From the NCBI RefSeq assembly GCF_056746865.1, contig NZ_CM163382.1: DNA of 64,000 nt; one strand, given 5' to 3'. Under the pieces are notes generated by a model. It saw nothing but the letters and a program-made list of their open reading frames with translations, was not told the DNA's origin and did no database searches. How positions within the stretch are numbered: the stretch's first letter is position 1; each line of letters begins with the position of its first letter. Positions 5,201 through 55,712 of this stretch are shown here, one piece after another. A program made the translations under genes and the position numbers.

Positions 5201-5238
5201 GAAAGCCCCCGGAAGATCACCTTCCGGGGGCTTTTTTA
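5201..5238 (+). terminator. his attenuator (leader Rho-independent terminator)
   Basis: GC-rich inverted repeat agcccccggaag...cttccgggggct followed by a T run (ttttttatt), between hisL and hisG. Confidence 0.85.
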
Positions 5239-5285
5239 TTGCGCGGTTGATAACGGTTCAGACAGGTTTAAAGAGGAATAAGAAA

Positions 5286-12415: not shown

Positions 12416-13396
12416 TTACTTCGCGTTGTAATTACGCAGAGCATTACGCCCCAACACAATCCCCGCGCCAACCATGCCGCCCAGCAGCACCGCCAGAATC
12501 AAGGTGATTGCCTTTTTCGGACTATCGCGACGAATAGGTAACGTCGGTTTCATCACATAACGGTAAGCATGAATATCAAGATCATCAACTTTTAAGCTTT
12601 CGATATCCAGCAGGTTTTGACGTGTCTGATAGTAGTTTGGTGAGAACACCAACGGACGGGTCGCCTCGTGCTTAATCATCGACTCCAGCGCTTCGCTCCC
12701 CAAAAGGAACAACGTATCTTGCGTGATATCTTCGCCAGTCTGTTGAATTTGCGGTTTTGTCACCTGCGCCTGATTCGCATACTGCAACACTTCCTGAATC
12801 TGACGGATACGCAGATCTTTCTGCTCTTGCGCGACTACTTCCTGAGTTCTTAAAGAGTCCCGCAAGTTTTTCCGTCCCAGAGCAATGTTGTCTTTTAGAT
12901 CCTTTTCTAGCTCTTGATTCACTTTATCATCAACTTGCTGAATGTATTGGGCCAACTTCATTTGTGCGCCCTCTGCTGTTTGCCCAACATAAGAAACAGT
13001 CAATGGTAATTGCTGGTTCTTAACAGAAGGTTCGATGGTAAGTTTTTCTGGTTCTTCCTGATTATCCAGCGTTTCTGCTAATGCAGAGAAGGCAGAACTG
13101 AAGCGACCAATTAACGTCTCCTGTAAATCCGATACTTTCGGCGCAGCCTGACCATAGATAACATTCATGGCATTGTTATAGCCAGCAATTTGCCCCACGT
13201 CGGGCTGAGTGATAATTGCTGTTGACGTCCATTTCTCCTTCGCTACTGCCAAATAACCAATAGCCAGGGCAATAGCCACAATGACGGAAATGATGATTGT
13301 CATCTTGCCACGCCACAACTGCACTAGTAAATCAATCAAATCAATCTGTTCCGGGTCATGGTTTTGCCCAGAAACATTATTATTTTCTACTCTCAT
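12416..13396 (-). CDS. wzzB: O-antigen chain-length determinant (polysaccharide co-polymerase, PCP-1)
   Basis: Start trimmed to MRVENNNVSGQNHDPEQIDLIDLL (ATG at 13396), 326 aa; two transmembrane segments flanking a large coiled periplasmic domain. Confidence 0.9.
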   Translation of the reverse strand: MRVENNNVSGQNHDPEQIDLIDLLVQLWRGKMTIIISVIVAIALAIGYLAVAKEKWTSTAIITQPDVGQIAGYNNAMNVIYGQAAPKVSDLQETLIGRFSSAFSALAETLDNQEEPEKLTIEPSVKNQQLPLTVSYVGQTAEGAQMKLAQYIQQVDDKVNQELEKDLKDNIALGRKNLRDSLRTQEVVAQEQKDLRIRQIQEVLQYANQAQVTKPQIQQTGEDITQDTLFLLGSEALESMIKHEATRPLVFSPNYYQTRQNLLDIESLKVDDLDIHAYRYVMKPTLPIRRDSPKKAITLILAVLLGGMVGAGIVLGRNALRNYNAK

Positions 13397-13541
13397 CATT
13401 ACCCTAAGTGACGGAAATTTCCAAGTCCGCATAGTTTAGCGATAATCCTCGTGAATGCTATAGGATAAGTGATAAAAATAATGAATTGTTGCGTAAGTAA
13501 CAAAAGACAATCAGGGCGTAAATAGCCCTGATAACAAGATG

Positions 13542-14717
<1,176 letters not shown>

Positions 14718-14898
14718 TCAGAATTAACTTAACTGTGAATCATGATGTTTTTAGCATCCTGATAAGAGCTAAAAGTTTTAACGCTACGTTGTTCGATGGT
14801 CAACGCAACGAAAAACAATTCAGATTTTCTTTATAAGAATAGCTGATATTTATTAAGTTAATATTAAGCAGTGAAATTTAGTCTATAAGATAATTGGC

Positions 14899-14931
14899 AA
14901 AAAAAAGCCCGGTGCAATATACGCCGGGCCT
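14899..14931 (-). terminator. Rho-independent terminator downstream of gnd
   Basis: On the minus strand: hairpin ggcccggcg...caccgggc followed by tttttttt, located just 3' of the gnd stop. Confidence 0.7.
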
Positions 14932-14956
14932 CAATTTTATTGTTGGTTAAATCAGA

Positions 14957-16363
14957 TTAATCCAGCCATTCAGTATGGAACACACCTTCTTTATCAATGC
15001 GCTTATAAGTATGCGCACCGAAATAGTCACGCTGTGCCTGGATCAGGTTCGCAGGCAGAACAGCGGCACGGTAGCTATCGTAATAGGCAACCGCAGCGGC
15101 GAAGGTCGGAACCGGGATACCGTTCTGTACTGCATATGCGACGACATCACGCAGCGCCTGCTGGTAGTCATCGGCAATTTGCTTGAAGTACGGAGCCAGC
15201 AGCAGGTTAGCGATCTGCGGATTTTCGGCATAAGCATCGGTGATTTTCTGCAGGAACTGCGCACGGATGATGCAGCCAGCACGGAAAATCTTCGCGATTT
15301 CGCCGTAGTTCAGAGCCCAGTTGTATTCTTCAGACGCAGCACGCAGCTGAGAGAAGCCCTGAGCGTAAGAAACGATTTTGCCAAGATACAGCGCACGGCG
15401 AACTTTTTCGATGAACTCAGCCTTGTCGCCTGCTGGCTGTCCTTGCGGGCCAGAGAGAACTTTAGATGCGGCAACACGCTGATCTTTCAGAGAAGAGATA
15501 TAACGTGCAAACACAGACTCGGTAATCAGCGACAGCGGTTCGCCGAGATCTAGCGCACTCTGGCTGGTCCATTTGCCTGTACCTTTGTTTGCTGCTTCAT
15601 CCAAAATCACATCAACCAGGTAGTTACCGTCTTCATCTTTTTTGGTGAAGATATCTTTGGTGATGTCGATCAGGTAGCTGCTTAGTTCACCGTTATTCCA
15701 CTCGGTAAAGGTCTGAGCCAGTTCTTCGTTGGTGAGGCTCAGGCCACCTTTAAGCAGTGAATAGGCTTCAGCAATCAGCTGCATATCGCCGTATTCAATA
15801 CCGTTATGAACCATCTTCACATAGTGACCAGCACCATCGGCACCAATATAGGTAACGCATGGCTCGCCGTCTTCAGCAACGGCGGCGATTTTGGTCAGGA
15901 TCGGCGCAACCAGTTCATAGGCTTCTTTCTGCCCACCAGGCATAATGGAAGGGCCTTTCAGCGCACCTTCTTCACCACCGGAAACACCGGTACCAATGAA
16001 GTTAAAGCCTTCGGCAGAAAGCTCGCGGTTACGACGAATGGTGTCCTGGAAGAAGGTATTACCACCATCAATGATGATGTCACCTTTATCGAGGTATGGC
16101 TTGAGGGAATCAATAGCAGCATCCGTGCCTGCACCTGCTTTCACCATTAACAGGATGCGACGAGGCGTTTCCAGAGATTCAACAAACTCTTTCACCGTAT
16201 AGTAAGGAACCAGTTTCTTGCCTGGATTTTCGGCAATCACTTCTTCCGTCTTTTCACGGGAACGGTTGAAAATAGAGACGGTATAACCACGGCTTTCGAT
16301 GTTGAGCGCAAGGTTGCGTCCCATCACTGCCATACCGACGACGCCGATCTGTTGCTTTGACAT
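14957..16363 (-). CDS. gnd: 6-phosphogluconate dehydrogenase (decarboxylating)
   Basis: 468 aa ORF ([30 protein letters not shown]...). Confidence 0.95.
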
Positions 16364-16474: not shown

Positions 16475-16882
16475 TTATAACCACTTAGAAAAAGCCTTAG
16501 CTTTCAGTGGGTCAAATGGCCCCTCCTTTATCTCCAACATAAGGGCTTTTGGTGACAAGCATTTGACACTATGTATATCTCCTGGGGAAAATTCCACGAC
16601 GCTTATTCCCGTACCGTCTCCAACCACAAACTGTTTTTGGATCTCACCATTTTGCTCATACAAGCAAACTTCTAATTGCCCTTGCATGACGACAAACATT
16701 TCCCACTGATGCGGTAACTCATGCCAATGGGGTTCAACATAGCTGTCGCGGACAAATGCAATAAGTAAACGTTGAACCTTCTCCTGATGAGATGCGTGCA
16801 ATAAATAATGAGCGCGCAAACGTTCAGAATTTGCTGCAGTGCGAAAAAGTTCATCCAGAATATTGTCATCAACTAAACGCAT
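16475..16882 (-). CDS. wbuC: Small cupin-like protein of the type found at the end of fnl-containing O-antigen clusters (WbuC-like)
   Basis: 135 aa ORF immediately downstream of a WbuB-like glycosyltransferase with a 10-nt overlap; assignment is by size, position and resemblance, not a verified function. Confidence 0.6.
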   Translation of the reverse strand: MRLVDDNILDELFRTAANSERLRAHYLLHASHQEKVQRLLIAFVRDSYVEPHWHELPHQWEMFVVMQGQLEVCLYEQNGEIQKQFVVGDGTGISVVEFSPGDIHSVKCLSPKALMLEIKEGPFDPLKAKAFSKWL

Positions 16883-18081
16883 TCTCCTGCCTCCAGTCGG
16901 ACTTCGATAATATGTGCCGCCGATTCAACCGAAAATTGAGACTTTAACAACACATTAGCGTTCTGACCTAACTGCTTTCTTAAAGCTGAATCACTAAGAA
17001 GCAATTGTGCAGATTTAAACAGTTTATCATCTTCACCATTAACATGAATGAAACCGGCCCTGTGCTTATTAATTACATCCATTAAATCATTGCCGCCATT
17101 CACACTCCCAAGGATCGGGATTGATTGAACCATATACCCTAGTAATTTCCCAGGGAAATTATGTGAAGAATGGCGAGATGAAAGGGAGAACAGGCCGACA
17201 TCAACTTCAGATAAAATTAATTTAAACTCTTCCTGGTTCACTGAAGGTAGGTGAGTGAAATTAGTTAAATTCCATTCTGCAGCAAGAGATTTTATCAGGT
17301 CAACTTCATCACCCTGCCCTATAAACAGGAAATGAGCATCATGATAACGCATCATATTACGCGCAAGGCGCATTAAGTTCGCCATATCCTGAGCATGCCC
17401 AATATTACCGCCATAGAAAAAAATGACTTTATCTTTTAGATCGTATTTTTGACGAAGTGAATGATAATCATCGCTGGCAGACACAGGAGTCATTGAGGCC
17501 CAATTACGTAAAACTTCACACGGATAACCTTTATTGGTCTGACGAAATATCTCAAGATTCTTATCAGACATTACCCCTATCCGGTCAGCCTGCTGATATG
17601 ATTTTTTTTCAAAATACCTGAAATATTTTTCAATTGGCGAACCGGCTTTCAACATACCTGCATCAATGACCCACTGTGGAAACATATCCCTTAGGACCAG
17701 GTAGCTTGGGCACTGGCATCGCTGCTTTATTTTTTTAACCAAGTCGCCCCAAAAAATAGAGGGGGAATAATAAACGATACCATCAAATGTATCATGTTGA
17801 ATGAGGTGCTTAAATGCGCGCCATGCACGAAAAGATAAAAGAGTTTCATTTATGGCACGCTTAGCCTTACCTACATCCTTTAAAGGTCCACTTTTGAAAC
17901 GCCAAACCTTTATACCATCAATCATACTAACAGAATAGATTGCTTGTAATGTGATGTCAGGCGTAATTACAGTTACATCATGGCCTCTGCTCAACAATTC
18001 AAGGCCTAACTCATGAAACATTTTAGCCCCAACACGTGTGCTATGGGGCAAATAATCATCAATGATTAATGCAAGTTTCAT
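16873..18081 (-). CDS. wbuB: GT4-family glycosyltransferase, probable L-FucNAc transferase (WbuB-like)
   Basis: 402 aa ORF directly downstream of fnlABC; in known clusters this position holds the transferase that uses the UDP-L-FucNAc made by FnlABC. Confidence 0.7.
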   Translation of the reverse strand: MKLALIIDDYLPHSTRVGAKMFHELGLELLSRGHDVTVITPDITLQAIYSVSMIDGIKVWRFKSGPLKDVGKAKRAINETLLSFRAWRAFKHLIQHDTFDGIVYYSPSIFWGDLVKKIKQRCQCPSYLVLRDMFPQWVIDAGMLKAGSPIEKYFRYFEKKSYQQADRIGVMSDKNLEIFRQTNKGYPCEVLRNWASMTPVSASDDYHSLRQKYDLKDKVIFFYGGNIGHAQDMANLMRLARNMMRYHDAHFLFIGQGDEVDLIKSLAAEWNLTNFTHLPSVNQEEFKLILSEVDVGLFSLSSRHSSHNFPGKLLGYMVQSIPILGSVNGGNDLMDVINKHRAGFIHVNGEDDKLFKSAQLLLSDSALRKQLGQNANVLLKSQFSVESAAHIIEVRLEAGECV

Positions 18082-19211
18082 TAGTATTGTTTCCAGACAA
18101 CCCGTTTAACGTAGTCAGTATATGAATGGATAATACGCACAACTTTATCTGAAACATTGGGCATGCTATAGTCACTGACCTGACGAAGTAAGCGTACTTC
18201 TCCACGAGGCTGTGTTGCAATAATTTCTAATGCCTGTAAAACGCGCTCAGATTCAAGACCGACCATCATTACTGCCCCTTCTTCGAAGCCTTCCGGGCGT
18301 TCGTGCGCTTCTCGTATATTGAGTGCAGGGAAGTTCATAATGGAGGACTCTTCTGTAATAGTCCCACTATCCGATAAAACAGCACGTGCATTTTTTTGCA
18401 GATGGTTGTAATCGTGAAATCCTAATGGCTTAAGAAGCAAGATATTTTTATGGAATTGAATACCGTTTTCATTGATGCGGTTACGAGTGCGAGGATGAGT
18501 AGAAACAACTACCGGGACATCATATTTTTCAGCCACGGTATTAAGTATATTCGCCAGTTTCGCAAGCTGTTTAGGGGTATCAACATTTTCTTCTCTGTGG
18601 GCACTTACCACAAAGAAATTCCCAGGTGTTAAATTCAGGCGAGAAAGTACATCGGAACCATCAATCTGCGGCATATAATGAGTGAGTACTTCAAACATTG
18701 GGCTACCGGTTTTAATAATTCTATCGGCTGGTACACCTTCAGCCAGAAGATATTCACGAGCGATATCGCTATATGTCATATTGATATCAGCAGTGTGGTC
18801 AACTATTTTTCTGTTAGTTTCTTCCGGTACGCGTTGGTCAAAACAACGATTCCCCGCTTCCATATGGAAGATCGGAATTTTTCGACGCTTTGCTGGTATT
18901 GCTGAAATACAGGAGTTAGTATCGCCAAGAACTAACATAGCTTCTGGTTTTTCCTGTTCAAGGACATCATCAACTTTAATGATAACTTGTCCAATAGTCT
19001 CTGCTGCATTTTTACCTGCGGCATTAAGAAAATAATCTGGTTTGCGAACACCCAAATCTTTGAAAAAAACTTCATTCAATTCATAATCGTAGTTTTGGCC
19101 AGTATGAATAATAAGGTGGTCACAATATTCATCTAATTTTGCAAGGACACGCGAGAGTCGAATAATTTCTGGACGAGTCCCAACAACCGACATGACTTTC
19201 AATTTTTTCAC
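18081..19211 (-). CDS. fnlC: UDP-N-acetylglucosamine 2-epimerase (non-hydrolysing), FnlC/Cap5G-like
   Basis: 376 aa ORF ([29 protein letters not shown]...) of the WecB/Cap5G epimerase type; third gene of the UDP-L-FucNAc pathway. Confidence 0.85.
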
Positions 19212-20314
19212 GATAAAACTCTCGCTATAGTATCTGGTTCAGAACGATTAAATATTTCATTTGCCCAAAGCATAACAACTAGCTCATCCGAGCCATTATT
19301 AGTGATGTCATGCGTCCACCCCGGAACTGTTTCAACAATTTTAAAATCATCTGAGGAGACATTAAATTCATATCGCTCACCCGTGACAATATTTTCAAAT
19401 TTGAAACAAGCACTTCCTCGGATGACAATAAATTTCTCATTTTTGGAATGATGATAATGTCCCCCCCGAGTAATTCCTGGATGCGCAGTAAAGAACGAAA
19501 ACTGGCCCGCGTTTTTCGTTTTCAATACTTCACAGAATACCCCTCTATCATCACTATAAGAAGGAACCGTATACGCAAACTGTTCAGGAGACAGATAACT
19601 TAACCATGTTGAGTACAATGCACGTGTAAATCCATTACCTACATCTTCGGTGATTAATGTTTGGCGACTTTCTTTAAATCGGTAAATTAATTGCGCCACT
19701 TCACCAACAGTAACAGAATAAATTGGACCGAATGTCCTGTAACCAGTTTCGTTCGCTCCTTCCAATAGCTTTAATATGTCAGAACAAAAGTCATCTATAT
19801 ACACCAGATCAACAACTGCTGAAGGATCATTAATTGTAATAGTTTCATCATTTGCAATGCGATGGCAGAAAGTTGCTATAAAGGAGTTATAATTTGGGCG
19901 ACACCACTTACCGAATACATTCGGCAAGCGATAAATATAATATTTGGCATTTGTCGTTTCCCCATACTGCTGAATGATTTTCTCCGCAGTCGCTTTACTC
20001 TTTCCATAAGCGTTATCACATTCAGCCTGGATGGAAGAACTCAGCATGATAGGAGTATTTTTATTATTTTTTTTCAGAACATCAACAATCTGTTGAGTTA
20101 CGTTGCTATTTCCCTCTTCAAATTCACTCTCCTTCACAGGACGATTTACTCCTGCAAGGTGAAAAATGAAATCTGCCTGCTTAAGTCCCTGCTCTAAATC
20201 CGCCAAAGAAGAGTTACGATCTATCGTAATAAGTTCGTTATAACCAGCCTCCTTAAGGCGGAAAACCAAATTACGGCCGATAAACCCTGAAGCACCAGTA
20301 ACTAAAATTTTCAT
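19208..20314 (-). CDS. fnlB: UDP-L-FucNAc pathway reductase/epimerase, FnlB/Cap5F-like
   Basis: ORF with short-chain dehydrogenase N-terminus ([17 protein letters not shown]); start placed at the ATG at 20314, but 20332 or 20341 are also possible. Confidence 0.8.
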
Positions 20315-20315
20315 A

Positions 20316-21350
20316 TTATGAATCCAACTCATAATCTTCACCAGAACGAATTGCCCGGATAAAAGGAAGTTTTAGCAGTAATTTTTTCATACCCTCAACA
20401 TCTAATCTCTCAGTATTATGAGAGTTATAATCTTCCACTTCCGAGATACGACGGTCACCATGTTCCACATATTTACCATAGTTCAAATCGCGGAGATCTG
20501 GTGGAACACGATAATAATCACCCATATCTTCCGCTGCTATCATTTCCTCTCGGCTCAATAACGCTTCGTAAAGTTTTTCCCCGTGTCGAGTTCCAATAAT
20601 ATTGATTGGATGTTCATGGGCATTTAGCAATTCCTTAAGTGCAATGGCTAATGTTTGAATTGTTGCCGCAGGAGCTTTCTGAACGAAAATATCACCGTTA
20701 TTTCCATGCTCGAAGGCATAAAGGACCAGATCAACAGCATCCTCAAGCGTCATCATGAAACGAGTCATATTGGGATCGGTAATGGTCAATGGTTTACCAG
20801 ATTTGATTAGATCAACAAACAATGGGATGACCGATCCACGTGAAGCCATTACATTCCCATAACGTGTTCCGCAGATAACTGTTTTTGAACTATCAAGATT
20901 ACGTGATTTTGCAACAATGACTTTTTCCATCATTGCTTTAGATATGCCCATTGCATTAATAGGATATACGGCTTTATCTGTACTCAGACATACAATTCGC
21001 CTAACGCGATTAGCTATTGCAGCTTCTAGAACGTTTTCAGTACCTAAAATATTCGTTTTTACAGCTTCCATGGGGTGGAATTCGCAGGAAGGCACTTGCT
21101 TCAGGGCTGCAGCATGATAAATAAAATCAACACCTCGAGAAGCATTGAGAATACTCGAATAATCGCGAACATCACCTATATAGAACTTAAGCTTCTGATT
21201 ATTATATTTTTTCCTCATGTCATCTTGTTTTTTTTCATCCCGGGAAAAAATACGTATTTCTTTGATATCTGTATCAAGAAAACGTCTTAGAACAGCATTA
21301 CCGAAAGACCCCGTACCACCAGTAATTAACAATATTTTACCATTAAACAT
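20316..21350 (-). CDS. fnlA: UDP-GlcNAc 4,6-dehydratase/5-epimerase, FnlA/Cap5E-like
   Basis: Start trimmed to MFNGKILLITGGTGSFGNAVLRRFLD (ATG at 21350), 344 aa. Confidence 0.85.
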   Translation of the reverse strand: MFNGKILLITGGTGSFGNAVLRRFLDTDIKEIRIFSRDEKKQDDMRKKYNNQKLKFYIGDVRDYSSILNASRGVDFIYHAAALKQVPSCEFHPMEAVKTNILGTENVLEAAIANRVRRIVCLSTDKAVYPINAMGISKAMMEKVIVAKSRNLDSSKTVICGTRYGNVMASRGSVIPLFVDLIKSGKPLTITDPNMTRFMMTLEDAVDLVLYAFEHGNNGDIFVQKAPAATIQTLAIALKELLNAHEHPINIIGTRHGEKLYEALLSREEMIAAEDMGDYYRVPPDLRDLNYGKYVEHGDRRISEVEDYNSHNTERLDVEGMKKLLLKLPFIRAIRSGEDYELDS

Positions 21351-21358
21351 AATACACC

Positions 21359-22462
21359 TTATTTTAAAATAGAGAAGAACTGTGGCCAAGATGAACGACT
21401 ATCTTTTTCATAAGGCCTAAAATTGAGCTTCGAATTGCCATTTAAAACATTAAACAACGCCCTAGCCCAGCCATCTTCATCATTGTAAATTACAAAATCT
21501 ACGCCGCTATAATTCTTTAAAACATCACGGGCATAAGGAAGATCACTACTAATGATTTTTTTTCCTAAACTAGCAGCTTCGATGAGTGGTAACCCATATG
21601 ATTCTATATAGCTAGGAAAAACAATAAAAGATGCCGCCATATATTTTTTTTGCAATTTCGAGTATGAAAGAACACCGAGATAATCAATGTTTTTGCTTAG
21701 GTTATTTAATTGCACAAACTTATCAAAATTTTTGTACCTATTCTTTTCAAAAGTCACTTGGAATTTCAGATCATCTATAAAATACTTTTGCTTTAAAATA
21801 ACCAACGCCTTCAGAATGACCAAATGATTTTTATAGGTAAGTGGTGTCGCTGGATATAAGAGTGTTTTAACAGATACATCCTTATCTACATCAAATTTAG
21901 TATTATTAAATGTTTTGATATCAGGTTTTATAACAAGGACCCTTTCGGAACTAATCTTATCACATTGATCCAACACTCCTTTTTTCATCCAATTCGTTTG
22001 CACTACGATGGTTGTATTTGCATTCACATATTTAAATATAAAATAGGAATAAAAATTTTTATATAAAAAAAGTTTTACGTTATCGAACGTGATATCATTT
22101 AAAAAAGAATCAACTTTACTGAAAGGAATTGGCTGGTGCAAGTAAATAATCTGCTCATAAGGAACATTCAAACTGGAATTTTGTAGAGAAATTACTTTCT
22201 TAACGTTAATCTTATGTTCAGAGATAAACTTTCGACAACCGAACCAATCCCAATATATTCTTTTCAACCATCCTTTTGGTGTGTTTTCTATGTAAATGAT
22301 GTTATCACAGACCGGCAACTCTAATCCCGCAGATACAAACATAATATAGTCATTTGAATTTTGTGATGCATGTTTTATAAATTGCTTTAATATAGTTAAT
22401 GCACCTCCGGAGGCCAGCGCCGTCGCACTTACAACAATATAACTTTTGGACAAATCAAACAT
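21359..22462 (-). CDS. GT4-family glycosyltransferase of the O-antigen cluster
   Basis: 367 aa ORF with the C-terminal GT4 motif (FPSYIESYGLPLIEAASLGKKII); AT-rich codon usage like its neighbours. Confidence 0.7.
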   Translation of the reverse strand: MFDLSKSYIVVSATALASGGALTILKQFIKHASQNSNDYIMFVSAGLELPVCDNIIYIENTPKGWLKRIYWDWFGCRKFISEHKINVKKVISLQNSSLNVPYEQIIYLHQPIPFSKVDSFLNDITFDNVKLFLYKNFYSYFIFKYVNANTTIVVQTNWMKKGVLDQCDKISSERVLVIKPDIKTFNNTKFDVDKDVSVKTLLYPATPLTYKNHLVILKALVILKQKYFIDDLKFQVTFEKNRYKNFDKFVQLNNLSKNIDYLGVLSYSKLQKKYMAASFIVFPSYIESYGLPLIEAASLGKKIISSDLPYARDVLKNYSGVDFVIYNDEDGWARALFNVLNGNSKLNFRPYEKDSRSSWPQFFSILK

Positions 22463-22738
22463 ACAGTTCCTAAGTGGTTATCTAAAGCTTCTTATTAACA
22501 TAAATTTTCAACAAATGAAAACAGACAGAGCAAAGTACACTTCCATAGGAAGTTATCCGAATGAATGCAGGATATTATATACTACATAAGAAGCCATATC
22601 CTATCTTTCCCAAATCGAAACATTTTCTGTTCTTGCCCTCTTATTTCCAGACAGGGATTGTATCTTAAGTTAGATATATGTCCAAGCCTACCTCTTATTT
22701 TAAGATACATCTACTGTCTGGTGTTTTCGGGGGTCAAC

Positions 22739-23229
22739 TCAGATCACATTATTAAGAATCTCACCACACACAACACTATTTGCGCCAATAACTACACCAT
22801 TACCTATACACGCACCTGGTAATATTGTCACGTTTTCACCAATCCACACACGCTCTTCAATATACACAGGTGCAGATTCAAGAGACCTAGATGAAGGAAT
22901 AATAGTTGGTGAACTATGGATATCAGATTTAGAAAAAATACCATGATTATGATCACTAATAAATACTTTACTTGCTATTAATGTATCTCTACCAATAATG
23001 GCATTATTAATAGCCGCGATGTGGAACATAATCATTAATTTGAACATTTTCTCCAATAGACACTATAGCATCCATAAATGTATCACCTCCTAATACTACA
23101 CCTGATGTAAACCCTTTTCCAAAACTAACACTTCCATCTTTTCTAAGATAACATGAAAATCTAATAACCCTAACATTTGAACAAAATAAAACTTTTGTTA
23201 AGAATAATCTTTAAGAAGCCTAAGACCAC
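22739..23229 (-). pseudogene. Degraded hexapeptide-repeat acetyltransferase gene
   Basis: The only intact ORF (22739..23056) encodes hexapeptide-repeat sequence (HIAAINNAIIGRDTLIASKVFISDHNHG...IGENVTILPGACIGNGVVIGANSVV). The N-terminal part (...GKGFTSGVVLGGDTFMDAIVSIGENVQINDYV) lies upstream in a different frame, consistent with a 1-nt insertion near 23005, and has no in-frame start codon. Confidence 0.65.
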
Positions 23230-23332
23230 CATAAAGGCCATATCGTTTAATTAACTTAATTTTTTATGCACATTATTTATGCCCTGGTTAGAATATATGT
23301 TATTTACGTATTAATGATAACATAATCTACTA

Positions 23333-24562
23333 TTATATAGCCATTTTGACATTAGATTTCATCAAGATAATTTTAGCATGATATTTGCATAAAAATATTG
23401 ATGAAAATAACATAAACACATAGGGATTTATATAGCCAGCACCACGTATAAAAAGGGGGATGAAGAAACACATATAGAAACTATATGCTAAAATATACTG
23501 CGGTGGATATCTCTTATTTTTTTTGAAACGCAGATAAAATCGAAAAAAAATAAAAAGATAGAAAATGCACATTATTGCACCAATAAACCCAAACTCAGAT
23601 ATTAACTTCGAAGAAATAAATGAGCCATCGTATATATTTAACATAGGGGCATCAAGATCAGCTAAAATTTGTTGATACACTCCTACCTCCCCATTCACGC
23701 CCATTTGTTGAAAACCAATACCAAGACCATAACTTGTAATAAAATTCAAGAAAGCTCTTTCAATTCCTGAAAGATATACAAGCACTGATAAGTTCGTAGT
23801 ATTTTTAAAATCAAGCCGCGATGTATAGTAAGAAATGTCTAAATCACTTAATATCATGGAAAAAATCCATGCCCCTAAAAATATAACAATAGTTTGCCTT
23901 ATTGTTATTTTTTTCATCACAAAAACACTAATCACAATGCCTACTAACATCGTTAAGTTCTGGATACCTAACGCAATACCCAAAGATAATATATAGAGCA
24001 ATAGTACCCCCCCCCCCCTTGTATAGTATAAACAAAATGAAAAGATAGGTATGAAAACCAATGCAAATGCTGATGGTTCAGGAAAAAGAATCATACTTTT
24101 ATCATGTATAATCTCAGTTTTCTGTAAAAGAATACTTATAATGCCAATAAGGCAAAGAAATGCGAACAAATAAAAGACGGATCTCTTAAGTATTTCTTCA
24201 GAACATAACCACAAAGTCTGTGCATAACAAGAGGAGACGTATGCCATTATTAAGATGCTATACATTGAAAGTACAATTTTAAATGATAAAACCTGTTCAA
24301 TATTAAATAGCATACTTAACAGACAGTTAAAACACAACAATATGAATAATACTACTATTATTAGCAAATTATCTTTGCAAGTGTTTTTAGCCCTTAAAAA
24401 AACAAAAAGCAATATAATGGAGATTATCGTTGAAATGCTAAAATTATCAATCCCTAATGTATAAAACAAAAAATCAGGAAAAACAAGGAAAAGTAAAAAT
24501 AAAAATATAATTCTTTTTGTGCTATTTGGTTCTTCTATTCTTATGCTCATACATAATCTCAA
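23333..24562 (-). CDS. wzy: O-antigen polymerase
   Basis: 409 aa highly hydrophobic, AT-rich ORF with many predicted transmembrane segments, between glycosyltransferase genes; contains a G12 tract on the coding strand. Start uncertain (24562 or 24550). Confidence 0.7.
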   Translation of the reverse strand: MRLCMSIRIEEPNSTKRIIFLFLLFLVFPDFLFYTLGIDNFSISTIISIILLFVFLRAKNTCKDNLLIIVVLFILLCFNCLLSMLFNIEQVLSFKIVLSMYSILIMAYVSSCYAQTLWLCSEEILKRSVFYLFAFLCLIGIISILLQKTEIIHDKSMILFPEPSAFALVFIPIFSFCLYYTRGGGVLLLYILSLGIALGIQNLTMLVGIVISVFVMKKITIRQTIVIFLGAWIFSMILSDLDISYYTSRLDFKNTTNLSVLVYLSGIERAFLNFITSYGLGIGFQQMGVNGEVGVYQQILADLDAPMLNIYDGSFISSKLISEFGFIGAIMCIFYLFIFFRFYLRFKKNKRYPPQYILAYSFYMCFFIPLFIRGAGYINPYVFMLFSSIFLCKYHAKIILMKSNVKMAI

Positions 24563-25670
24563 TTATCTTTTTTGCCCAATTGTCCCAATGCAATATTTTA
24601 TTATATCTAACTCTTGCGTTTTGGGAGTAGTTTTGATAAGTCTCTACGGAGCTAATTATTTTATGAATTGCATTTCCAAAGTGCTTATAGTCTGACGAGT
24701 CTTTAATTAATATCCCCGTCCTTTCGTTGATAACTATAGAACTAATTCCACCTGTATCTGTGGCGACAACTGGCAATCCATAAGCTGCAGCTTCACAAAA
24801 TACCATTCCGTAACATTCAGCAATGGTTGGTAAAAGAAGTATATCAGCGTTAGATAACACATCGATGAATTTCTGATATTCTTCAACGTTATTTTTATTT
24901 ATTTTATCAATTAATTCAACCCAAGCAGGTAAAATCTCTTGATTCGGAGTACATCCACAAATTTTTAGTCTAACATCGATCCCATATAACTCTCTTACAT
25001 ATTCAATTGCTTTCAATGCTGTTTTACCACCTTTTCTTTCCCAATCGACCCCCAAGAAAAGACAAGTATAACTAATCTTTTGAATTATAGTTTTATTAGC
25101 AAAATGAATATCTTCAAATAAATTAGCCCCCCATGGTATTTCAACTAATTTATCAGAATCCAATCTGTAATAGTCCTTGCAAAAATCCATTGCCCATTTA
25201 GATGGGAAAGATACGACTGTTGCTTTTTCAATAGCCTTGCGTTCGATTAAACTTGCATCCTCATCATTTATAATTGTTTTTTTATTTAAATTCGGATAAT
25301 AGTTTTTTAATTGATCATATGTTGTATCCGATAGATATATTATTGGTATATTTGTTTCTAAAAAAGCAATTTGTGAAGAACCTGCAGGTGCAATAATAAA
25401 ATCCAAACCATCAATTTTTTTTAATTTTCTCTCAAATATTCTACCGTAATACTTGGAAAGCAACTTCGAACGACTATAATCATATTCCTTTCCGAAACAC
25501 CTTAATATTAATTTATATGCTTTTAACATGTATACCATATAGCTATTTACCGGTCCTAATATTTCAATGGAAATATTTCTCTTCGATAATGCCTTTAGCA
25601 TATAATAAGGTGTGCCAGACCAACTGGATGTAGATAGTGGATCATAAGCAGATAAAAAAGCCACTTTCAT
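24522..25670 (-). CDS. GT4-family glycosyltransferase of the O-antigen cluster
   Basis: 382 aa ORF with GT4 motif (LPTIAECYGMVFCEAAAYGLPVVATDTGGISSIV). Confidence 0.7.
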   Translation of the reverse strand: MKVAFLSAYDPLSTSSWSGTPYYMLKALSKRNISIEILGPVNSYMVYMLKAYKLILRCFGKEYDYSRSKLLSKYYGRIFERKLKKIDGLDFIIAPAGSSQIAFLETNIPIIYLSDTTYDQLKNYYPNLNKKTIINDEDASLIERKAIEKATVVSFPSKWAMDFCKDYYRLDSDKLVEIPWGANLFEDIHFANKTIIQKISYTCLFLGVDWERKGGKTALKAIEYVRELYGIDVRLKICGCTPNQEILPAWVELIDKINKNNVEEYQKFIDVLSNADILLLPTIAECYGMVFCEAAAYGLPVVATDTGGISSIVINERTGILIKDSSDYKHFGNAIHKIISSVETYQNYSQNARVRYNKILHWDNWAKKIIEIMYEHKNRRTK

Positions 25671-25736
25671 TAAATACCCTTTAATAACATATCAAACTAT
25701 ACATTTATTTAATAACACCATCATTAAATGCATATT

Positions 25737-26702
25737 CTAATGGCATTTGCTACCTTTATTTCGTTTGAAGTTAAACATAACATTCAAACATCTTTTCATC
25801 TTATTAAACTCACCTCTTCTAGCACGGTTAAATGCTACAACAAAGAGTGACAACCATACCGTCCAATAATATTGTGGATAAAACTTTTCTGTAATGACCA
25901 GCCTATTTTTTATTGAACAAAGGTCAGCTATCATACTCTTTCCCCCATCAGTACTTGCACCTATCTTATGATAAACCAAACTATCTGAGCAAATACCTAA
26001 TTTAAAGTTCTTTGCTTTTGCTCTGAGGCAAATATCTAACTCTTCATAGTATAAAAAATATTCTTCATTCATCAATCCAACTGTTTCCAAACATTCTCTA
26101 GAGAAAAACATTGATGCGCCAATTATATAATCTATATTATTGCTAATGACTTCATCATCATATTTTTTGGAAACTAATCTTCCCATCTCATAATTTTTTG
26201 TAGTGCATAACCATCTGTAATGTACCCCACCCAGTCCTTGCTGCATCTCTCTATCGGTAAAATAGACTAAACGAGAACCGCAAATCCCTATATTTTTATC
26301 TGAATCACATTTACTAATTAAATGAGTTAAAGCCTCTTTATCCACTTCAGTATCATTATTCAGAACCCAGACGTATTTCATATCCTCCTGATTAAGTGCG
26401 AGCTCTATTCCAATGTTATTACCACTTGCGTACCCATTATTTTTCGGAGATTGTATTAATATGATTTTATCGTTTTCTAATGTTTGATATTTACTTCTAT
26501 CCTCATACTTCACCTCAATGAAACTTTTACCAGTAATATATAATGCATTAAGATTTTCTTTTATAGAATCATATGAGTTATCCGTAGAACAGTTATCAAC
26601 AACGATAATTTTATAATCATCATAATTTAAATTCATTAAACTTTTAACACAATTAATGGTATCTATAGCCCCATTCCAATTTAACACTACAATATATATC
26701 AT
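25737..26702 (-). CDS. GT2-family glycosyltransferase, possibly a rhamnosyltransferase
   Basis: 321 aa ORF with GT2 N-terminus (MIYIVVLNWNGAIDTINCVKSL...VVDNCSTDNS); the sugar specificity is inferred only from the neighbouring rml genes. Confidence 0.7.
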   Translation of the reverse strand: MIYIVVLNWNGAIDTINCVKSLMNLNYDDYKIIVVDNCSTDNSYDSIKENLNALYITGKSFIEVKYEDRSKYQTLENDKIILIQSPKNNGYASGNNIGIELALNQEDMKYVWVLNNDTEVDKEALTHLISKCDSDKNIGICGSRLVYFTDREMQQGLGGVHYRWLCTTKNYEMGRLVSKKYDDEVISNNIDYIIGASMFFSRECLETVGLMNEEYFLYYEELDICLRAKAKNFKLGICSDSLVYHKIGASTDGGKSMIADLCSIKNRLVITEKFYPQYYWTVWLSLFVVAFNRARRGEFNKMKRCLNVMFNFKRNKGSKCH

Positions 26703-27979
26703 CAGGCTACCCTTTTTTTCATAAGATTATTACAACGATAACTCATATAAAAAAGCATCAAAAAATCAATTATCACTCGAATTGTCCATAACCACGCCAC
26801 ACCAATAACCCCACATTCCTTTGAAATTATATATAACATTATCAAATAAGGAATAAATTCCATCATATGGATGTATGCAGTGTATTTTGCTTTTCCAAAT
26901 GCCTGTATATTGGCAAAAGAGATTTGTGAATAACAGTTAAAGATATACCCTATAAGCATAATCCGTAATATTTCGACTGAAATCCCTGCATACTCAGCCC
27001 CCATCCACAATGTTAAAATAAACTTTGCGTAGTAATATATAAATAAAACCAAAGGCAATACAATGACAGTCATTAATATATACGCTTTTTTTTGTTCTGC
27101 ATATGACGCTGTAAAACTACTTGCATGGCTTAATTTTGGAAAAACAGCTTTCCCAAGAGAGCCTGGAACTATTCCAAGCCTAGTTACCAGCTCATTAGGG
27201 ACTGTATAGAATGATATTTTTGATGCTCCCTGGATATGAGATAGAATAAATCTATCCATACTCGCTAATATAGGAGATATTATGTTACTTATAGTTACCC
27301 ACCCGCCATATCTAAATAACCGTTTTAAAACAGTTATTGAAAAAAATGAAATATCGATAGTTATTCTTTTCCTGCTCATAATGTAGCTTAACCACAAGCA
27401 TATAACTCTTGCAATAGCTACACCAATAATTGCAGAAAAAAGTGTTTGATTAATTAAAACAAATAATGCAGGCAACCCTGCAATTAAAGAATTCCCTAAA
27501 CTTTTTTGTATATTTAGGATTCCAAAATATTCCCGCCCCTCAAGCTCTGCTAATAGTATTTGCGTGACTAAGAATACAGGTATCAGAGATGATAATAATA
27601 TTAGAGACTTTATCGCATCGACGTAGTATATTGGTGACATATTTAACAGTTCAATAATATGGTCTTTAAGCAGAAACACTCCCCCGCCTCCGATACCCCC
27701 TAAAAATACCACAGCAATAATAGAAGTTACTATTATCGTATTACAATCGTCCAGTCTGTTTTTTAGTAATGCTATTTCGCGTACTACAGCTCTTGTTAAC
27801 CCAGCATCAAATATACTAGCATACCCTATAAAAATCATTGATAAAGTATACAAACCAAATAGTTCTACACCAATTTCCCTTGCAATTAATCCAAACGCTG
27901 GGATTGCAATTAATGTTGGTATAAAGTAGCCCGCAACATTCCATATACTATGTTTTAAGAGAGACATTTCAATACTCAC
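26702..27979 (-). CDS. wzx: O-antigen flippase
   Basis: 425 aa polytopic membrane protein; its stop overlaps the downstream glycosyltransferase start (ATGA). Confidence 0.75.
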   Translation of the reverse strand: MSIEMSLLKHSIWNVAGYFIPTLIAIPAFGLIAREIGVELFGLYTLSMIFIGYASIFDAGLTRAVVREIALLKNRLDDCNTIIVTSIIAVVFLGGIGGGGVFLLKDHIIELLNMSPIYYVDAIKSLILLSSLIPVFLVTQILLAELEGREYFGILNIQKSLGNSLIAGLPALFVLINQTLFSAIIGVAIARVICLWLSYIMSRKRITIDISFFSITVLKRLFRYGGWVTISNIISPILASMDRFILSHIQGASKISFYTVPNELVTRLGIVPGSLGKAVFPKLSHASSFTASYAEQKKAYILMTVIVLPLVLFIYYYAKFILTLWMGAEYAGISVEILRIMLIGYIFNCYSQISFANIQAFGKAKYTAYIHMMEFIPYLIMLYIISKECGVIGVAWLWTIRVIIDFLMLFYMSYRCNNLMKKRVA

Positions 27980-28511
27980 TTAGTTCTAATTTTTCCCCAT
28001 TTGCATCCTTATCAGACAGAGTAATCAGTGCTGTCCTTGGCCATTTAATATTAAGCAAGGGGTCATTCCAGATAATATTTCGTTCATGTGATGGAGCATA
28101 ATATTGATTCGTTTTATATAAAACTTCTGCTAAATCACTAAGTACCAAAAATCCATGAGCAAATCCTTCAGGTATCCACAACTGACGCTTGTTCTCAGCA
28201 GACAAATTCACCCCAACCCATTTCCCAAATGTACCTGACGATTTACGAATATCAACTGCTACATCAAAAACCTCACCGACCACACAACGAACTAATTTAC
28301 CTTGAGCATAAGGTTCCAGCTGATAGTGCAATCCGCGTAATACACCCTTAATTGATTTAGAATGGTTATCCTGAACAAATTCAACCTTACGCCCTACAGC
28401 CTCTTCGAAAACTTTCTGATTAAAGCTTTCCATAAAAAAACCGCGCTCATCACCAAAAACTTCCGGTTCCAAAATTAATACATCAGGAATTTCAGTTTTA
28501 ATTACATTCAT
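27969..28511 (-). CDS. rmlC: dTDP-4-dehydrorhamnose 3,5-epimerase
   Basis: 180 aa ORF (MNVIKTEIPDVLILEPEVFGDERGFFMESF...). Confidence 0.9.
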   Translation of the reverse strand: MNVIKTEIPDVLILEPEVFGDERGFFMESFNQKVFEEAVGRKVEFVQDNHSKSIKGVLRGLHYQLEPYAQGKLVRCVVGEVFDVAVDIRKSSGTFGKWVGVNLSAENKRQLWIPEGFAHGFLVLSDLAEVLYKTNQYYAPSHERNIIWNDPLLNIKWPRTALITLSDKDANGEKLELSEY

Positions 28512-28513
28512 TT

Positions 28514-29392
28514 TTAGTAACCTTTAATCATTTTTAGCAGATACTGACCATAAGCATTTTTCTTTAGTGGTTCTGCTAATACATTAACCTGCTCAGCGTC
28601 AATAAAGCCTTTACGATAAGCAATTTCTTCCGGGCAAGATACCTTTAAACCTTGTCGCTCTTCAATTGTTGCAATGAAGTTACTTGCTTCAATCAGACTT
28701 TGATGTGTCCCCGTGTCTAACCATGCATAACCACGGCCCATCATGGCAACAGATAAACGCCCCTGTTCCATATAGACACGGTTAATATCGGTAATTTCCA
28801 GTTCACCACGGGCAGAAGGCTTAAGGTTTTTCGCCATTTCCACAACGTCGTTATCATAGAAATAAAGCCCGGTTACCGCATAATTACTTTTTGGTTGTAA
28901 CGGTTTTTCTTCCAAGCTGATTGCAGTACCGTTTTTATCAAACTCAACGACACCATAGCGTTCAGGATCATTTACGTGATAGGCAAATACCGTTGCACCA
29001 CTTTCTTTGTTAACAGCGGCATCCATTAACCTCGGCAGATCGTGACCGTAAAAGATATTATCACCAAGAATCAAAGCACAATCATCACCACCAATAAACT
29101 CTTCACCGATAATAAATGCCTGCGCAAGCCCATCTGGAGTCAGTTGCACTTTGTACTGAAGATTTAGCCCCCACTGGCTACCGTCACCCAGCAGTTGTTG
29201 AAAACGAGGAGTATCCTGTGGCGTACTAATAATCAAAATATCGCGAATACCCGCCAACATCAGTGTAGAGAGCGGGTAATAGATCATCGGTTTATCATAA
29301 ATCGGTAATAGCTGTTTACTGACTGCCATAGTCACAGGATAAAGACGAGTACCAGAACCACCCGCTAAAATAATACCCTTACGCGTTTTCAT
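28514..29392 (-). CDS. rmlA: Glucose-1-phosphate thymidylyltransferase
   Basis: 292 aa ORF ([40 protein letters not shown]...). Confidence 0.95.
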
Positions 29393-29449
29393 TTCATCAT
29401 TCCTTTTAATTCATCTTGCTCCATCATCACGAACAAGATGCAAAAACTA

Positions 29450-30349
29450 TTAAATTGCTGTAGTCGTAAATAATTCGTTGAGCATGCGTTTCACACCAAC
29501 CTGCCAGTCAGGCAAGACAAGCGCAAAATTCTGCCGAAATTTTTCTGTATTAAGTCGAGAGTTATGTGGACGACAAGCTGGTGTAGGATAGGCTGTCGTT
29601 GGTACCGCATTGAGTTTGTTGAGTGCGAGGGGAATATCTGCTTTGCGCGCCTCTTCAAAAACCAGCGCAGCATAATCGTACCAGGTCGTGGTACCACTGG
29701 CTACCAGATGGTACAAGCCTGCGACATCCGGTTTATTCAGTGCGACACGAATGGCATGTGCTGTACAATCGGCCAGAAGCTCAGCACCCGTTGGTGCGCC
29801 AAATTGATCGTTTATCACAGCCAACTCTTCGCGTTCTTTTGCCAGACGCAACATCGTTTTGGCAAAATTATTTCCTTTACCAGCGTATACCCAGCTGGTA
29901 CGGAAAATAAGATGCTTTGCGCAATGTTCTTGTAACGCTTTTTCCCCAGCTAGCTTAGTTTCACCGTAAACATTTAGCGGCGCTGTTGCATCCGTTTCCA
30001 GCCATGGCCTGTCACCACTGCCAGGGAAAACATAATCGGTGGAGTAGTGTATAACCCAAGCTCCAACTTCATTTGCTGCTTTCGCAATCGCTTCGACACT
30101 TGTTGCGTTAAGTAATTGTGCAAACTCCGGTTCTGATTCTGCTTTGTCTACTGCGGTGTGAGCGGCTGCGTTGACAATAATATCAGGCCGAATGCTTCTT
30201 ACGGTTTCAGCTACACCTTCAGGATTACTAAAATCACCACAGTAATCAGTGGAGTGAACATCAAGAGCAATCAAATTACCCAAAGGTGCCAGAGCACGCT
30301 GTAGTTCCCAACCTACCTGCCCTGTTTTGCCGAATAGGAGGATATTCAT
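29450..30349 (-). CDS. rmlD: dTDP-4-dehydrorhamnose reductase
   Basis: 299 aa ORF ([30 protein letters not shown]...). Confidence 0.95.
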   Translation of the reverse strand: MNILLFGKTGQVGWELQRALAPLGNLIALDVHSTDYCGDFSNPEGVAETVRSIRPDIIVNAAAHTAVDKAESEPEFAQLLNATSVEAIAKAANEVGAWVIHYSTDYVFPGSGDRPWLETDATAPLNVYGETKLAGEKALQEHCAKHLIFRTSWVYAGKGNNFAKTMLRLAKEREELAVINDQFGAPTGAELLADCTAHAIRVALNKPDVAGLYHLVASGTTTWYDYAALVFEEARKADIPLALNKLNAVPTTAYPTPACRPHNSRLNTEKFRQNFALVLPDWQVGVKRMLNELFTTTAI

Positions 30350-31434
30350 TACTGGCGGCCCTCATAGTTCTGTTCAATCCACGATTGATAGGCGCCACTT
30401 TTCACATTATCAACCCATTTTGTATTGGACAGGTACCATTCCACCGTCTTTCGAATCCCGCTCTCAAACGTTTCTTGCGGTTTCCAGCCCAATTCACGGC
30501 TAATTTTATCGGCATCGATCGCATAACGGCGATCATGCCCTGGGCGATCAGCAACATAAGTAATTTGCTCACGATAAGATTTCTCTTTCGGTACAATCTC
30601 ATCCAGCAAATTACAAATAGTGAGCACTACATCAATGTTTTTCTTTTCGTTGTGCCCACCAATGTTATAAGTTTCACCCGCTTTACCTTCGGTTACGACG
30701 GTATATAATGCACGCGCATGATCTTCAACATACAGCCAATCACGAATTTGATCCCCTTTGCCATAAATAGGTAATGCCTTACCTTCCAGAGCATTAAGAA
30801 TTACTAGTGGAATCAATTTTTCCGGAAAGTGATAAGGACCGTAGTTATTCGAACAGTTAGTCACAATGGTCGGTAAACCATAGGTACGTTTCCACGCGCG
30901 GACTAAATGATCGCTGGATGCTTTGGATGCGGAATAAGGGCTGCTTGGTGCGTAAGCTGTTGTCTCAATAAATAAGGGTAATTTTTCTTTATTATTTACT
31001 TCGTCAGGATGAGGCAAATCACCATAGACTTCGTCAGTAGAAATATGATGAAAACGGAAGCTATTTTTCTTGTCGCTATCAAGAGCAGACCAGTAATTGC
31101 GAGCAGCTTCCAAAAGGACATAAGTACCAACAATATTGGTTTCAATAAATGCCGCAGGGCCTGTAATTGAACGGTCAACATGGCTTTCAGCAGCCAGGTG
31201 CATCACTGCATCCGGCTGATGCTGAGAAAAAATTCGCGCCATTGCAGCAGCATCGCAAATATCCGCATGTTCAAAAACATAGCGTTCAGAATCAGAAACA
31301 TCAGCAAGTGATTCCAGGTTTCCGGCGTACGTTAATTTATCGACATTAACAACACTATCCTGCGTATTATTTATAATGTGACGAACTATAGCAGAACCAA
31401 TAAATCCTGCGCCACCAGTAACAAGTATCTTCAC
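30349..31434 (-). CDS. rmlB: dTDP-glucose 4,6-dehydratase
   Basis: 361 aa ORF ([39 protein letters not shown]...); first gene of the O-antigen cluster. Confidence 0.95.
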
Positions 31435-31508
31435 TTATTTATTCCATATAACTTCAGAGCATGCTGTGAAATAAGCGGCTCTTAGGTTGATTAATAGAGG
31501 TGTTAATG

Positions 31509-31548
31509 CACGCTACCGCCCCTGGCTTTACAGCTACCAGAGCACTAC
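31509..31548 (-). promoter_or_regulatory. JUMPstart element with ops site upstream of the O-antigen cluster
   Basis: Plus strand reads cacgctaccgcccctggctttacagctaccagagcactac; its reverse complement contains GGCGGTAGCGTG, the ops motif, oriented with the minus-strand rmlB operon. Confidence 0.85.
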
Positions 31549-31805
31549 ATGCATGTCTACGATGTGACGAGCGTTACCCACTCGCGCTAAACCCGAAAAA
31601 TTCAAACGCTAATTGTCTTACCAATCCGCTCTGGAAACAAGGAAAATCCTGGAAAACTTTGACTAAAATCCTATTGCTAAGTCGTTGTTATTCTGATTGT
31701 TTATATAAAACAACGGCAGGAAAATTCGCAACAAATTACTTTCGCCGCTAATCTTCACTGCCGTTATAATTTTCTTATCAACCGTTACATCCGGTCAGAT
31801 TTTCA

Positions 31806-32699
31806 TTATTCGCTTAACAGCTTCTCAATCCCTTTACGGAACTTCGCCCCTTCTTTGAGGTTGCGTAGTCCATACTTCACGAACGCTTGCATATAACCCA
31901 TTTTTTTACCGCAGTCGTAGCTGTCGCCGGTCATCAGCATGGCATCAACGGACTGTTTTTTCGCCAGTTCGGCAATGGCATCAGTCAGCTGAATACGTCC
32001 CCATGCACCAGGCTGAGTGCGTTCCAGTTCCGGCCAAATATCGGCAGAAAGCACATAGCGACCAACGGCCATGATGTCTGAGTCCAGCGTCTGCGGCTGA
32101 TCCGGTTTTTCGATGAATTCAACAATGCGGCTGACTTTACCTTCGCGGTCCAGCGGCTCTTTGGTCTGGATGACAGAGTATTCAGAGAGGTCACCCGGCA
32201 TACGTTTTGCCAGCACCTGGCTGCGGCCCGTTTCGTTGAAGCGCGCAATCATGGCAGCAAGGTTGTAGCGCAGCGGGTCGGCGCTGGCGTCGTCGATCAC
32301 AACGTCTGGCAGCACCACGACAAATGGATTGTCACCAATGGCAGGTCGTGCACATAAAATGGAGTGGCCCAAACCTAAAGGTTCGCCCTGACGCACGTTC
32401 ATAATTGTCACGCCCGGCGGGCAAATGGACTGTACTTCCGCCAGCAGTTGACGCTTCACGCGCTGTTCAAGGAGAGATTCTAATTCATAAGAGGTGTCGA
32501 AGTGGTTTTCGACCGCGTTCTTGGAAGCGTGAGTTACCAGGAGGATTTCTTTGATCCCTGCAGCCACAATCTCGTCAACGATGTACTGAATCATTGGCTT
32601 GTCGACGATCGGTAGCATCTCTTTGGGAATCGCCTTAGTGGCAGGCAACATATGCATCCCAAGACCCGCTACAGGAATAACTGCTTTTAAATTCGTCAT
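31806..32699 (-). CDS. galF: UTP-glucose-1-phosphate uridylyltransferase paralogue
   Basis: Start trimmed to [39 protein letters not shown] (ATG at 32699), 297 aa. Confidence 0.9.
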
Positions 32700-41148: not shown

Positions 41149-41254
41149 ATCGTTACCCTTTTTCAGGCAATAGTTGGCCCTGACCGAAGCGGCCAATTTT
41201 GTTTTTGTCGTTATTTACACCGCGGTTTCGCATTCATTGCCTGATGCGACGCTG

Positions 41255-55678: not shown

Positions 55679-55712
55679 CACGCTACCGCCCCTGGCTTTT
55701 TAGCTACCAATA
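55679..55712 (-). promoter_or_regulatory. JUMPstart element with ops site in the colanic acid operon leader
   Basis: Plus strand reads cacgctaccgcccctggctttttagctaccaa; the reverse complement carries GGCGGTAGCGTG upstream of wza. Near-identical to the element at 31509. Confidence 0.85.

Follow-up and report, generated by a model that had tools for sequence, protein, structure and literature searches.

The intergenic region between galF and the O-antigen genes of Escherichia coli raises two linked questions: what does the short conserved element within it do, and where does that element lie with respect to the start of O-antigen transcription? The window analysed here (the whole stretch of DNA, 64 kb in length) comes from E. 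coli, with 100% identity to strain F11 (NZ_CP184143) over 19.5 kb and 99.7% identity to strain ABU 83972. Gene calls were taken from the RefSeq annotation of these two strains, whose loci are identical or nearly identical to that of the window, together with the list of open reading frames, and the features discussed below are collected in Table 1.

The genes on either side of the region are transcribed in the same direction, on the minus strand. Upstream lies galF, a conserved neighbour, and downstream lies the O25 O-antigen operon, which reads, from the rfbB (= rmlB) end, rfbBDAC, wzx, two glycosyltransferase genes, wzy, a glycosyltransferase gene, fnlA, wbjC, wecB, a glycosyltransferase gene and wbuC. 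The ops sequence is therefore followed by a long one-strand operon for a surface structure, about 15 kb in length and AT-rich. The G+C content is 54% in galF and drops to about 30% midway through the O25 cluster, and DNA of about 30% G+C is of the kind that is coated by H-NS. The ops sequence itself lies on the non-template strand, and thus in the sense orientation, within the 371-nt non-coding gap; the GTG start of rfbB is 75 nt further downstream. This GTG is preceded by only a weak GGA, 8 nt upstream, consistent with a review in which the rfb and waaQ leaders are described as having ops and JUMPstart and as being without a ribosome-binding site (PMC6358824). The 64-kb window does not contain rfaH, which is a core E. 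coli gene.

Two open reading frames in this region call for a comment. The O25 wzy gene (23333-24562, minus strand) is annotated by RefSeq as frameshifted in both F11 and ABU 83972; the corresponding reading frame in the window is uninterrupted, with 409 aa and a TTG start, and the frameshift call may be an annotation artefact or may reflect a real lesion relative to the reference Wzy. Indels distinguish the serotypes in the region spanned by an antisense reading frame of 83 aa (31500-31751, plus strand), and this frame was dismissed.

Table 1. Features of the O-antigen control region and of related loci in the window
Feature	Position	Strand	Basis or remark
JUMPstart, 39 nt	31509..31547	-	Rfam RF01707, full-length match
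ops, GGCGGTAGCGTG	31509..31520	-	exact match; pause positions U11 = 31510, C9 = 31512
JUMPstart hairpin	31522..31540	-	CUGGU 31540-31536, 9-nt loop, GCCAG 31526-31522; Rfam consensus structure
Candidate sigma-70 promoter of the O-antigen operon	31612..31640	-	-35 TTGTTT 31640-31635, 17-nt spacer, -10 GACAAT 31617-31612
Untranslated leader, predicted	31435..31607	-	start ~31607-31605 from the conserved -10
Probable galF intrinsic terminator	31700..31767	-	hairpin 31767-31710, then GUUUUAUAUA (31709-31700)
galF, conserved upstream neighbour	31806..32699	-	RefSeq annotation, ORF list
rfbB (= rmlB), first gene of the operon, GTG start	30349..31434	-	annotation, sequence
O25 O-antigen operon body	16475..31434	-	F11 annotation, single strand
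gnd	14957-16363	-	annotation
ugd	13542-14708	-	annotation
wzzB	12416-13396	-	annotation
gnd, ugd and wzzB together	12416..16363	-	possibly reached by RfaH-modified polymerase; CFT073 RfaH peak extends through wzzB
wcaM	32874-34268	-	annotation; colanic-acid cluster runs on beyond wcaM
Second JUMPstart/ops, leader of the colanic-acid operon (wza)	55679..55717	-	Rfam 57.3 bits, identical ops
his leader pause signal	5132-5161	+	5-bp stem, 8-nt loop, 11-nt spacer

The JUMPstart element and its ops sequence

The minus strand reads ...atgTAGTGCTCTGGTAGCTGTAAAGCCAGGGGCGGTAGCGTGcattaa... around the element and, over a longer stretch, ...GCATGTAGTGCTCTGGTAGCTGTAAAGCCAGGGGCGGTAGCGTGCATTAACACC..., and ops forms the 3' end of the JUMPstart sequence. 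A preliminary description, made from the letters of this DNA, had placed an ops sequence inside a JUMPstart-like sequence on the reverse complement, between galF and rmlB. This proves accurate: the 12-mer is exact, and the JUMPstart sequence matches Rfam model RF01707 over its full length (model positions 1-38 of 38) with 56.8 bits, where the gathering score is 35, and with an E-value of 2.2e-10 for the whole window or 1.6e-12 locally. The span given there, 31509-31548, is exact at its downstream end and one base too long at its upstream end, since the JUMPstart sequence runs 31547..31509. The 12-nt ops consensus GGCGGTAGnnTG is reproduced exactly, including C3, G4, G5, T6, A7 and G8 as well as T11 and G12. 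Two matches to the degenerate ops pattern GGCGGTAGNNTG are present in the 64-kb window, versus 0.11 expected, and 0 of 100 shuffles reached two or more; ops-like sites with one or two mismatches number 8 in the window, versus 4.2 expected, and show no excess over chance. A near-exact copy of the JUMPstart sequence was found in 2386 genomes, and the 371-nt galF-rfbB intergenic region in 3654 of 5426 complete E. coli genomes. Both in sequence and in location, this is a classic JUMPstart/ops in front of a known serotype cluster, and as such it is already known.

Small sequence differences mark the two ends of the element. At the first base of JUMPstart (31547, minus strand), the O25 lineage has T where most E. 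coli have C (TAGTGC versus CAGTGC); this position falls outside both the hairpin and ops, and most database matches begin at query base 2. At the other end, ops is directly followed by CCTG or TCTG at many gammaproteobacterial sites (GCGTG-YCTG), the sequence at this point being TCTG in the wza copy of the window and CATT in the rfb copy. The CCTG or TCTG is possibly an extension of the ops consensus.

The final base of ops is also a boundary of another kind. Among E. coli serotypes, similarity stops exactly there, at 31509/31508: megablast matches from clusters that do not start with rfbB end at query 297/298, which corresponds to the same window positions, and the alignment shows the same break. 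Downstream of ops, the sequence is common only to clusters that begin with rfbB. Thus, ops is the left junction of the exchangeable O-antigen cassette and marks the exact edge of serotype-shared DNA, and this base-level start of serotype-specific DNA is useful for serotype typing and for the engineering of strains for glycoconjugate vaccines.

The second JUMPstart/ops of the window lies 190 nt upstream of wza, whose promoter is Rcs-dependent. It resembles the rfb copy in having an identical ops, identical hairpin arms and the same spacing, and differs in the loop and the flanks. The wza ops of strain CFT073 is a cryptic site that is bound by RfaH only in an hns stpA mutant (PMC9765446), a result that bears on the second JUMPstart here. 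The 8-mer GGCGGTAG is found at two further places. One is within wcaI (43006-43017, minus strand), where the DNA reads GGCGGTAGGCGG, and the other (56270-56277, minus strand) is antisense within a plus-strand gene beside wza; neither has T11 or G12, and with this and their coding location these sites are not expected to load RfaH. Three other RNA families scored above threshold in the Rfam search of the window: the histidine operon leader (131.7 bits, 5116-5239, plus strand), the sRNA STnc240 (68.2 bits, 2303-2377, minus strand) and the algC RNA motif (77.3 bits, 41153-41202, minus strand), the last being in the cpsB-cpsG gap of the colanic-acid cluster.

Probable terminator, candidate promoter and predicted leader

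Just downstream of galF is a hairpin with a predicted free energy of -30.3 kcal/mol (z -6.7), and none of 200 shuffles was equally stable. The columns of the hairpin arms are invariant in an alignment of eight E. coli serotypes, and a hairpin with a U-tract of different sequence occupies the same position in E. cloacae (z -8.8), Superficieibacter (z -8.9) and E. albertii (z -4.4). This structure is probably the intrinsic terminator of galF, conserved as structure rather than sequence; it carries no RefSeq annotation. Matches to Rfam microRNA families at 31704-31771 were rejected as artefacts of the terminator hairpin.

Between this terminator and JUMPstart, 92-120 nt upstream of ops, lies the sequence TTGTTT-17-GACAAT. 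It forms an invariant island in eight serotypes, even where the intergenic region has otherwise diverged, as in those of O104, O83, O113 and the M1/5 type. In a comparison across genera, in which an upstream galF was confirmed by tblastn, E. albertii, E. cloacae, Superficieibacter and Enterobacter sp. Bisph1 all retain the two hexamers at a distance of exactly 17 nt, while the sequence of the spacer varies. The E. cloacae region has TTGTTT, spacer CTGATGCGATTTAGGAC and GACAAT; that of Superficieibacter has TTGTCT, spacer CTGAGTTAAATTCATAT and AACAAT; and that of Enterobacter sp. Bisph1 has TTGTTT, spacer CCCGATCTATTTCAGCG and GAGAAT. Conserved hexamers at a conserved spacing, with a changing sequence between them, are the signature of a promoter. 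The -35 is weak, with 3 of 6 consensus positions, and for this reason the site was not called by a consensus scanner. The scanner's sole site, TTGAGA-18-GAAAAT (31828-31799), was rejected: it is located ahead of the terminator, it reaches into the end of galF, and one such site was found versus 1.4 expected in shuffles.

The start of O-antigen transcription is thus predicted to be directed by TTGTTT-17-GACAAT, with the exact start estimated from the -10 hexamer at about 31607. Marolda and Valvano reportedly described, in 1998, a leader of 173 nt in the O7 cluster, a length that fits this start. In CFT073, the start of the predicted transcription unit precedes ops by 67 nt, equivalent to window position 31587, and coincides with a sigma-70 peak (PMC9765446). 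A survey of transcription start sites in K-12 lists one start 317 nt upstream of rfbB, corresponding to 31750, with 8 reads (Kim 2012 supplement, PMC3415461). Position 31750 (minus strand) lies within the 5' arm of the terminator hairpin and is without a good -10; given this location and the small number of reads, the K-12 5' end may have arisen by processing. Work on E. coli Ec300 (PMC3101779) offers no information on the promoter. The three sources, namely the -10 hexamer (about 31607), the CFT073 RNA-seq data (about 31587) and the K-12 survey (31750), agree on the side and not on the base, and all of them place the start upstream of ops. The preliminary description had predicted that the promoter lies between 31548 and galF, and both the cross-genus conservation of TTGTTT-17-GACAAT and the CFT073 and K-12 starts support this prediction. 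Its statement that the element marks the 5' end of the transcription unit needs a small correction, since by these estimates the leader would begin about 60-100 nt before the element. The leader RNA as a whole has the stability of shuffled sequence (z -0.08).

The hairpin that adjoins ops

In the JUMPstart sequence, a 5-bp stem with a 9-nt loop is followed by two G residues and then by ops. The hairpin therefore ends 2 nt before ops, with 12 nt separating its 3' end from U11 and 10 nt separating it from C9. The conservation of this layout was analyzed by scanning for GGGGCGGTAGCGTG in one genome per species, which gave 121 sites, and by asking whether the first G of GGGG coincides exactly with the end of a 5-bp stem that has a loop of 3-16 nt. 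A hairpin was found at this register at 17 of 22 sites in Enterobacterales and 25 of 37 in other Gammaproteobacteria, versus 13 of 62 in other phyla, where the sites are chance matches (Gammaproteobacteria versus chance sites, Fisher p = 3e-8). At nine other registers, the counts reached at most 5/22 in Enterobacterales and at most 14/37 in the other Gammaproteobacteria. The stems covary, with arm pairs that include CTGGT/GCCAG, CAGGT/GCCTG, CAGGA/TCCTG, CAAGA/TCTTG, CACTG/CGGTG and CGGGG/CCTCG. The fixed register and the covariation argue that what is conserved is a hairpin at a set distance from ops rather than the upstream sequence. This result agrees with the conserved stem-loop reported by Weinberg et al. 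(PMC2864571). The one mildly new point of the present analysis is that the 5-bp hairpin next to ops covaries across Gammaproteobacteria.

Folding energies tell a different story, in that shuffled sequences are as stable as the 46-nt JUMPstart RNA (z 0.24). The support for an RNA structure thus comes from register and covariation, and thermodynamics alone gives none. As to function, the JUMPstart hairpin could conceivably act in the RNA exit channel, either in the manner of the his leader hairpin or as a clamp that opposes backtracking, and thereby tune the dwell time at ops and hence the efficiency with which the scarce RfaH is loaded. We offer this idea tentatively and give it low weight, because the ops complex is described as distinct from hairpin-stabilised pauses and because the RNA is not unusually stable. 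In vitro studies of ops have, to our knowledge, been carried out with the 12-mer detached from its native hairpin.

Probable RfaH loading at ops and its parallels

Experimental evidence for the function of the element comes from the uropathogenic strain CFT073 (O6), where the identical 12-mer in the orthologous leader downstream of galF recruits RfaH, with a 30-fold peak in ChIP-seq (PMC9765446). The peak covers 15.4 kb, beginning at the 5' end of the first O-antigen gene and extending over gnd, ugd and wzzB, and is gone in an rfaH deletion; without RfaH, distal genes lose most of their RNA polymerase, whose travelling ratios go down to 0.1-0.34 or less of the wild-type values (PMC9765446). 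The same study found ops-like sites in coding regions that are without RfaH binding (PMC9765446). Structural and mutational work has shown that C3-G8 are needed for RfaH recruitment, with the C3:G8 pair closing a hairpin in the non-template DNA and T6 flipping into a pocket of RfaH, and that T11 and G12 are needed for the ops pause (PMC5995543). All of the bases required for recruitment and pausing are present in the ops of the window. The element is very probably the RfaH loading site of the O25 O-antigen operon. The preliminary description had read it as the signal for RfaH-dependent antitermination, and that reading is well supported by the full JUMPstart, the perfect ops, its place on the non-template strand of a non-coding leader and the RfaH binding at the orthologous CFT073 leader. 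By analogy with the orthologous loci, expression of the operon in this strain would likewise be RfaH-dependent.

The features of the hairpin suggest that the element might instead work mainly as RNA, with hairpin and ops acting together in the nascent leader, whether by pausing or preventing backtracking, as a protective 5' structure or as a binder of RfaH in the manner of RirA. Rfam indeed models JUMPstart as a stem-loop RNA, the conserved stem-loop of Weinberg et al. and the fixed register and covarying stems described above point the same way, the geometry is near that of the his pause hairpin of the same window, and the binding of RfaH by RirA, a 73-nt RNA of the waaQ leader, depends on ops (PMC6358824). 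We nevertheless consider a mainly RNA-level function unlikely: contacts with the non-template DNA fully account for RfaH recruitment, as judged by crystal structures, cryo-EM and mutagenesis (PMC5995543), the ops-paused complex is described as biochemically distinct from hairpin-stabilised complexes (PMC11001881; also PMC2034486), and the JUMPstart RNA has the unremarkable stability noted above. JUMPstart would be bypassed, and largely irrelevant here, if the main promoter were downstream of ops. A candidate is TTCACA-18-TGGAAT (about 31472-31443), which is present in the window, is kept in 4 of 4 aligned intergenic regions of clusters that begin with rfbB, and is listed for the rfbB-galF spacer, as the constitutive RpoD promoter of rfbB, in a gSELEX survey of RpoD holoenzyme sites in K-12 (PMC3946193). 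That listing, however, is a sequence prediction tied to a broad binding peak of low resolution, and the sequence ends 8 nt before the GTG, where a start on or beside the GTG would give a leaderless GUG mRNA. Furthermore, the sequence is missing from serotypes whose cluster starts with another gene, transcription start site profiling of K-12 shows no start there (PMC3415461), and RfaH occupies the whole of the K-12 rfb and CFT073 O-antigen units. A main promoter at this place is very improbable.

The sharp end of inter-serotype similarity at the last base of ops allows yet another explanation, in which the element is conserved merely as the edge of a recombination flank used in the exchange of O-antigen clusters and has no regulatory role. 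Conservation of a passive flank would not account for the island of perfect identity that persists in O104, O83 and O113 where the adjacent upstream sequence diverges, nor for the presence of the same motif ahead of unrelated operons (wza, waaQ, hly and kps) and in other genera. With the direct RfaH binding data from CFT073 (PMC9765446), and with ops point mutations shown to affect distal expression in related systems, a purely structural role as a flank appears most improbable. Finally, the 8-mer GGCGGTAG does occur at non-functional places in the window (43010-43017 and 56270-56277), as might be expected if the 12-mer itself were a chance occurrence. The two matches of the degenerate pattern against 0.11 expected, the Rfam E-value of 2e-10 and conservation in thousands of genomes leave coincidence with a negligible probability.

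If ops is the RfaH loading site of the O25 operon, the following sequence of events can be proposed. Transcription would initiate at the weak sigma-70 promoter (31640-31612), just past the galF terminator, and RNA polymerase would transcribe JUMPstart some 85-100 nt after the start. The polymerase would then pause at ops, at C9 (31512) and U11 (31510), because ops matches the consensus pause in having G at -10, U at -1 and G at +1. In the paused complex, GGCGGTAG in the non-template strand would fold into a small hairpin with the C3:G8 pair and with T6 flipped out. The N-terminal domain of RfaH would read this hairpin, and RfaH would open, clamp the polymerase and exclude NusG. The refolded KOW domain would bring a ribosome to rfbB, with its GTG start and poor Shine-Dalgarno sequence. 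The modified polymerase would resist pausing, Rho and H-NS roadblocks over the AT-rich operon of about 15 kb, and would probably continue through gnd, ugd and wzzB. Terminator-like sites in that downstream region are located at 13532-13510 and 12388-12370. The analysis provides a correct annotation of the 5' control region of the O25 operon, which runs from the galF terminator to the promoter, the leader and the RfaH loading site, and this arrangement would explain the dependence on rfaH of O-antigen and, through it, of serum resistance and virulence.

The closest parallels are the K-12 rfb, O7 wb and CFT073 O6 leaders, which have the same locus, 12-mer and hairpin as the window. The 371-nt intergenic region is 95-98% identical to that of K-12 and many other strains, and RfaH binding has been shown for CFT073 (PMC9765446) and is cited for K-12 rfb (PMC5995543). 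The waaQ (rfaQ) leader belongs to another RfaH-dependent operon, for LPS, and has the same GGCGGTAGCGTG in its 5' leader. That leader is shorter, since in CFT073 27 nt separate the start from ops, and has been reported to yield the RirA RNA of 73 nt that titrates RfaH. We know of no RfaH-titrating RNA from the rfb leader.

Pausing at ops can also be compared with the his leader pause within the window. Both have a 5-bp stem, a loop of 8-9 nt, a spacer of 11-12 nt to U followed by G, and G at -10. The his pause is of class I, is hairpin-dependent and serves attenuation, whereas the ops pause is described as pre-translocated or backtracked and serves factor loading. More distant parallels are provided by lambda Q at the late promoter, the Bacteroides UpxY system and the EAR/epsC RNA. 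Although lambda Q needs sigma on a -10-like element, EAR acts as RNA, and all three systems work without the non-template GGCGGTAG hairpin, in each of them a promoter-proximal signal in a long operon's leader makes the polymerase resistant to termination, as ops does.
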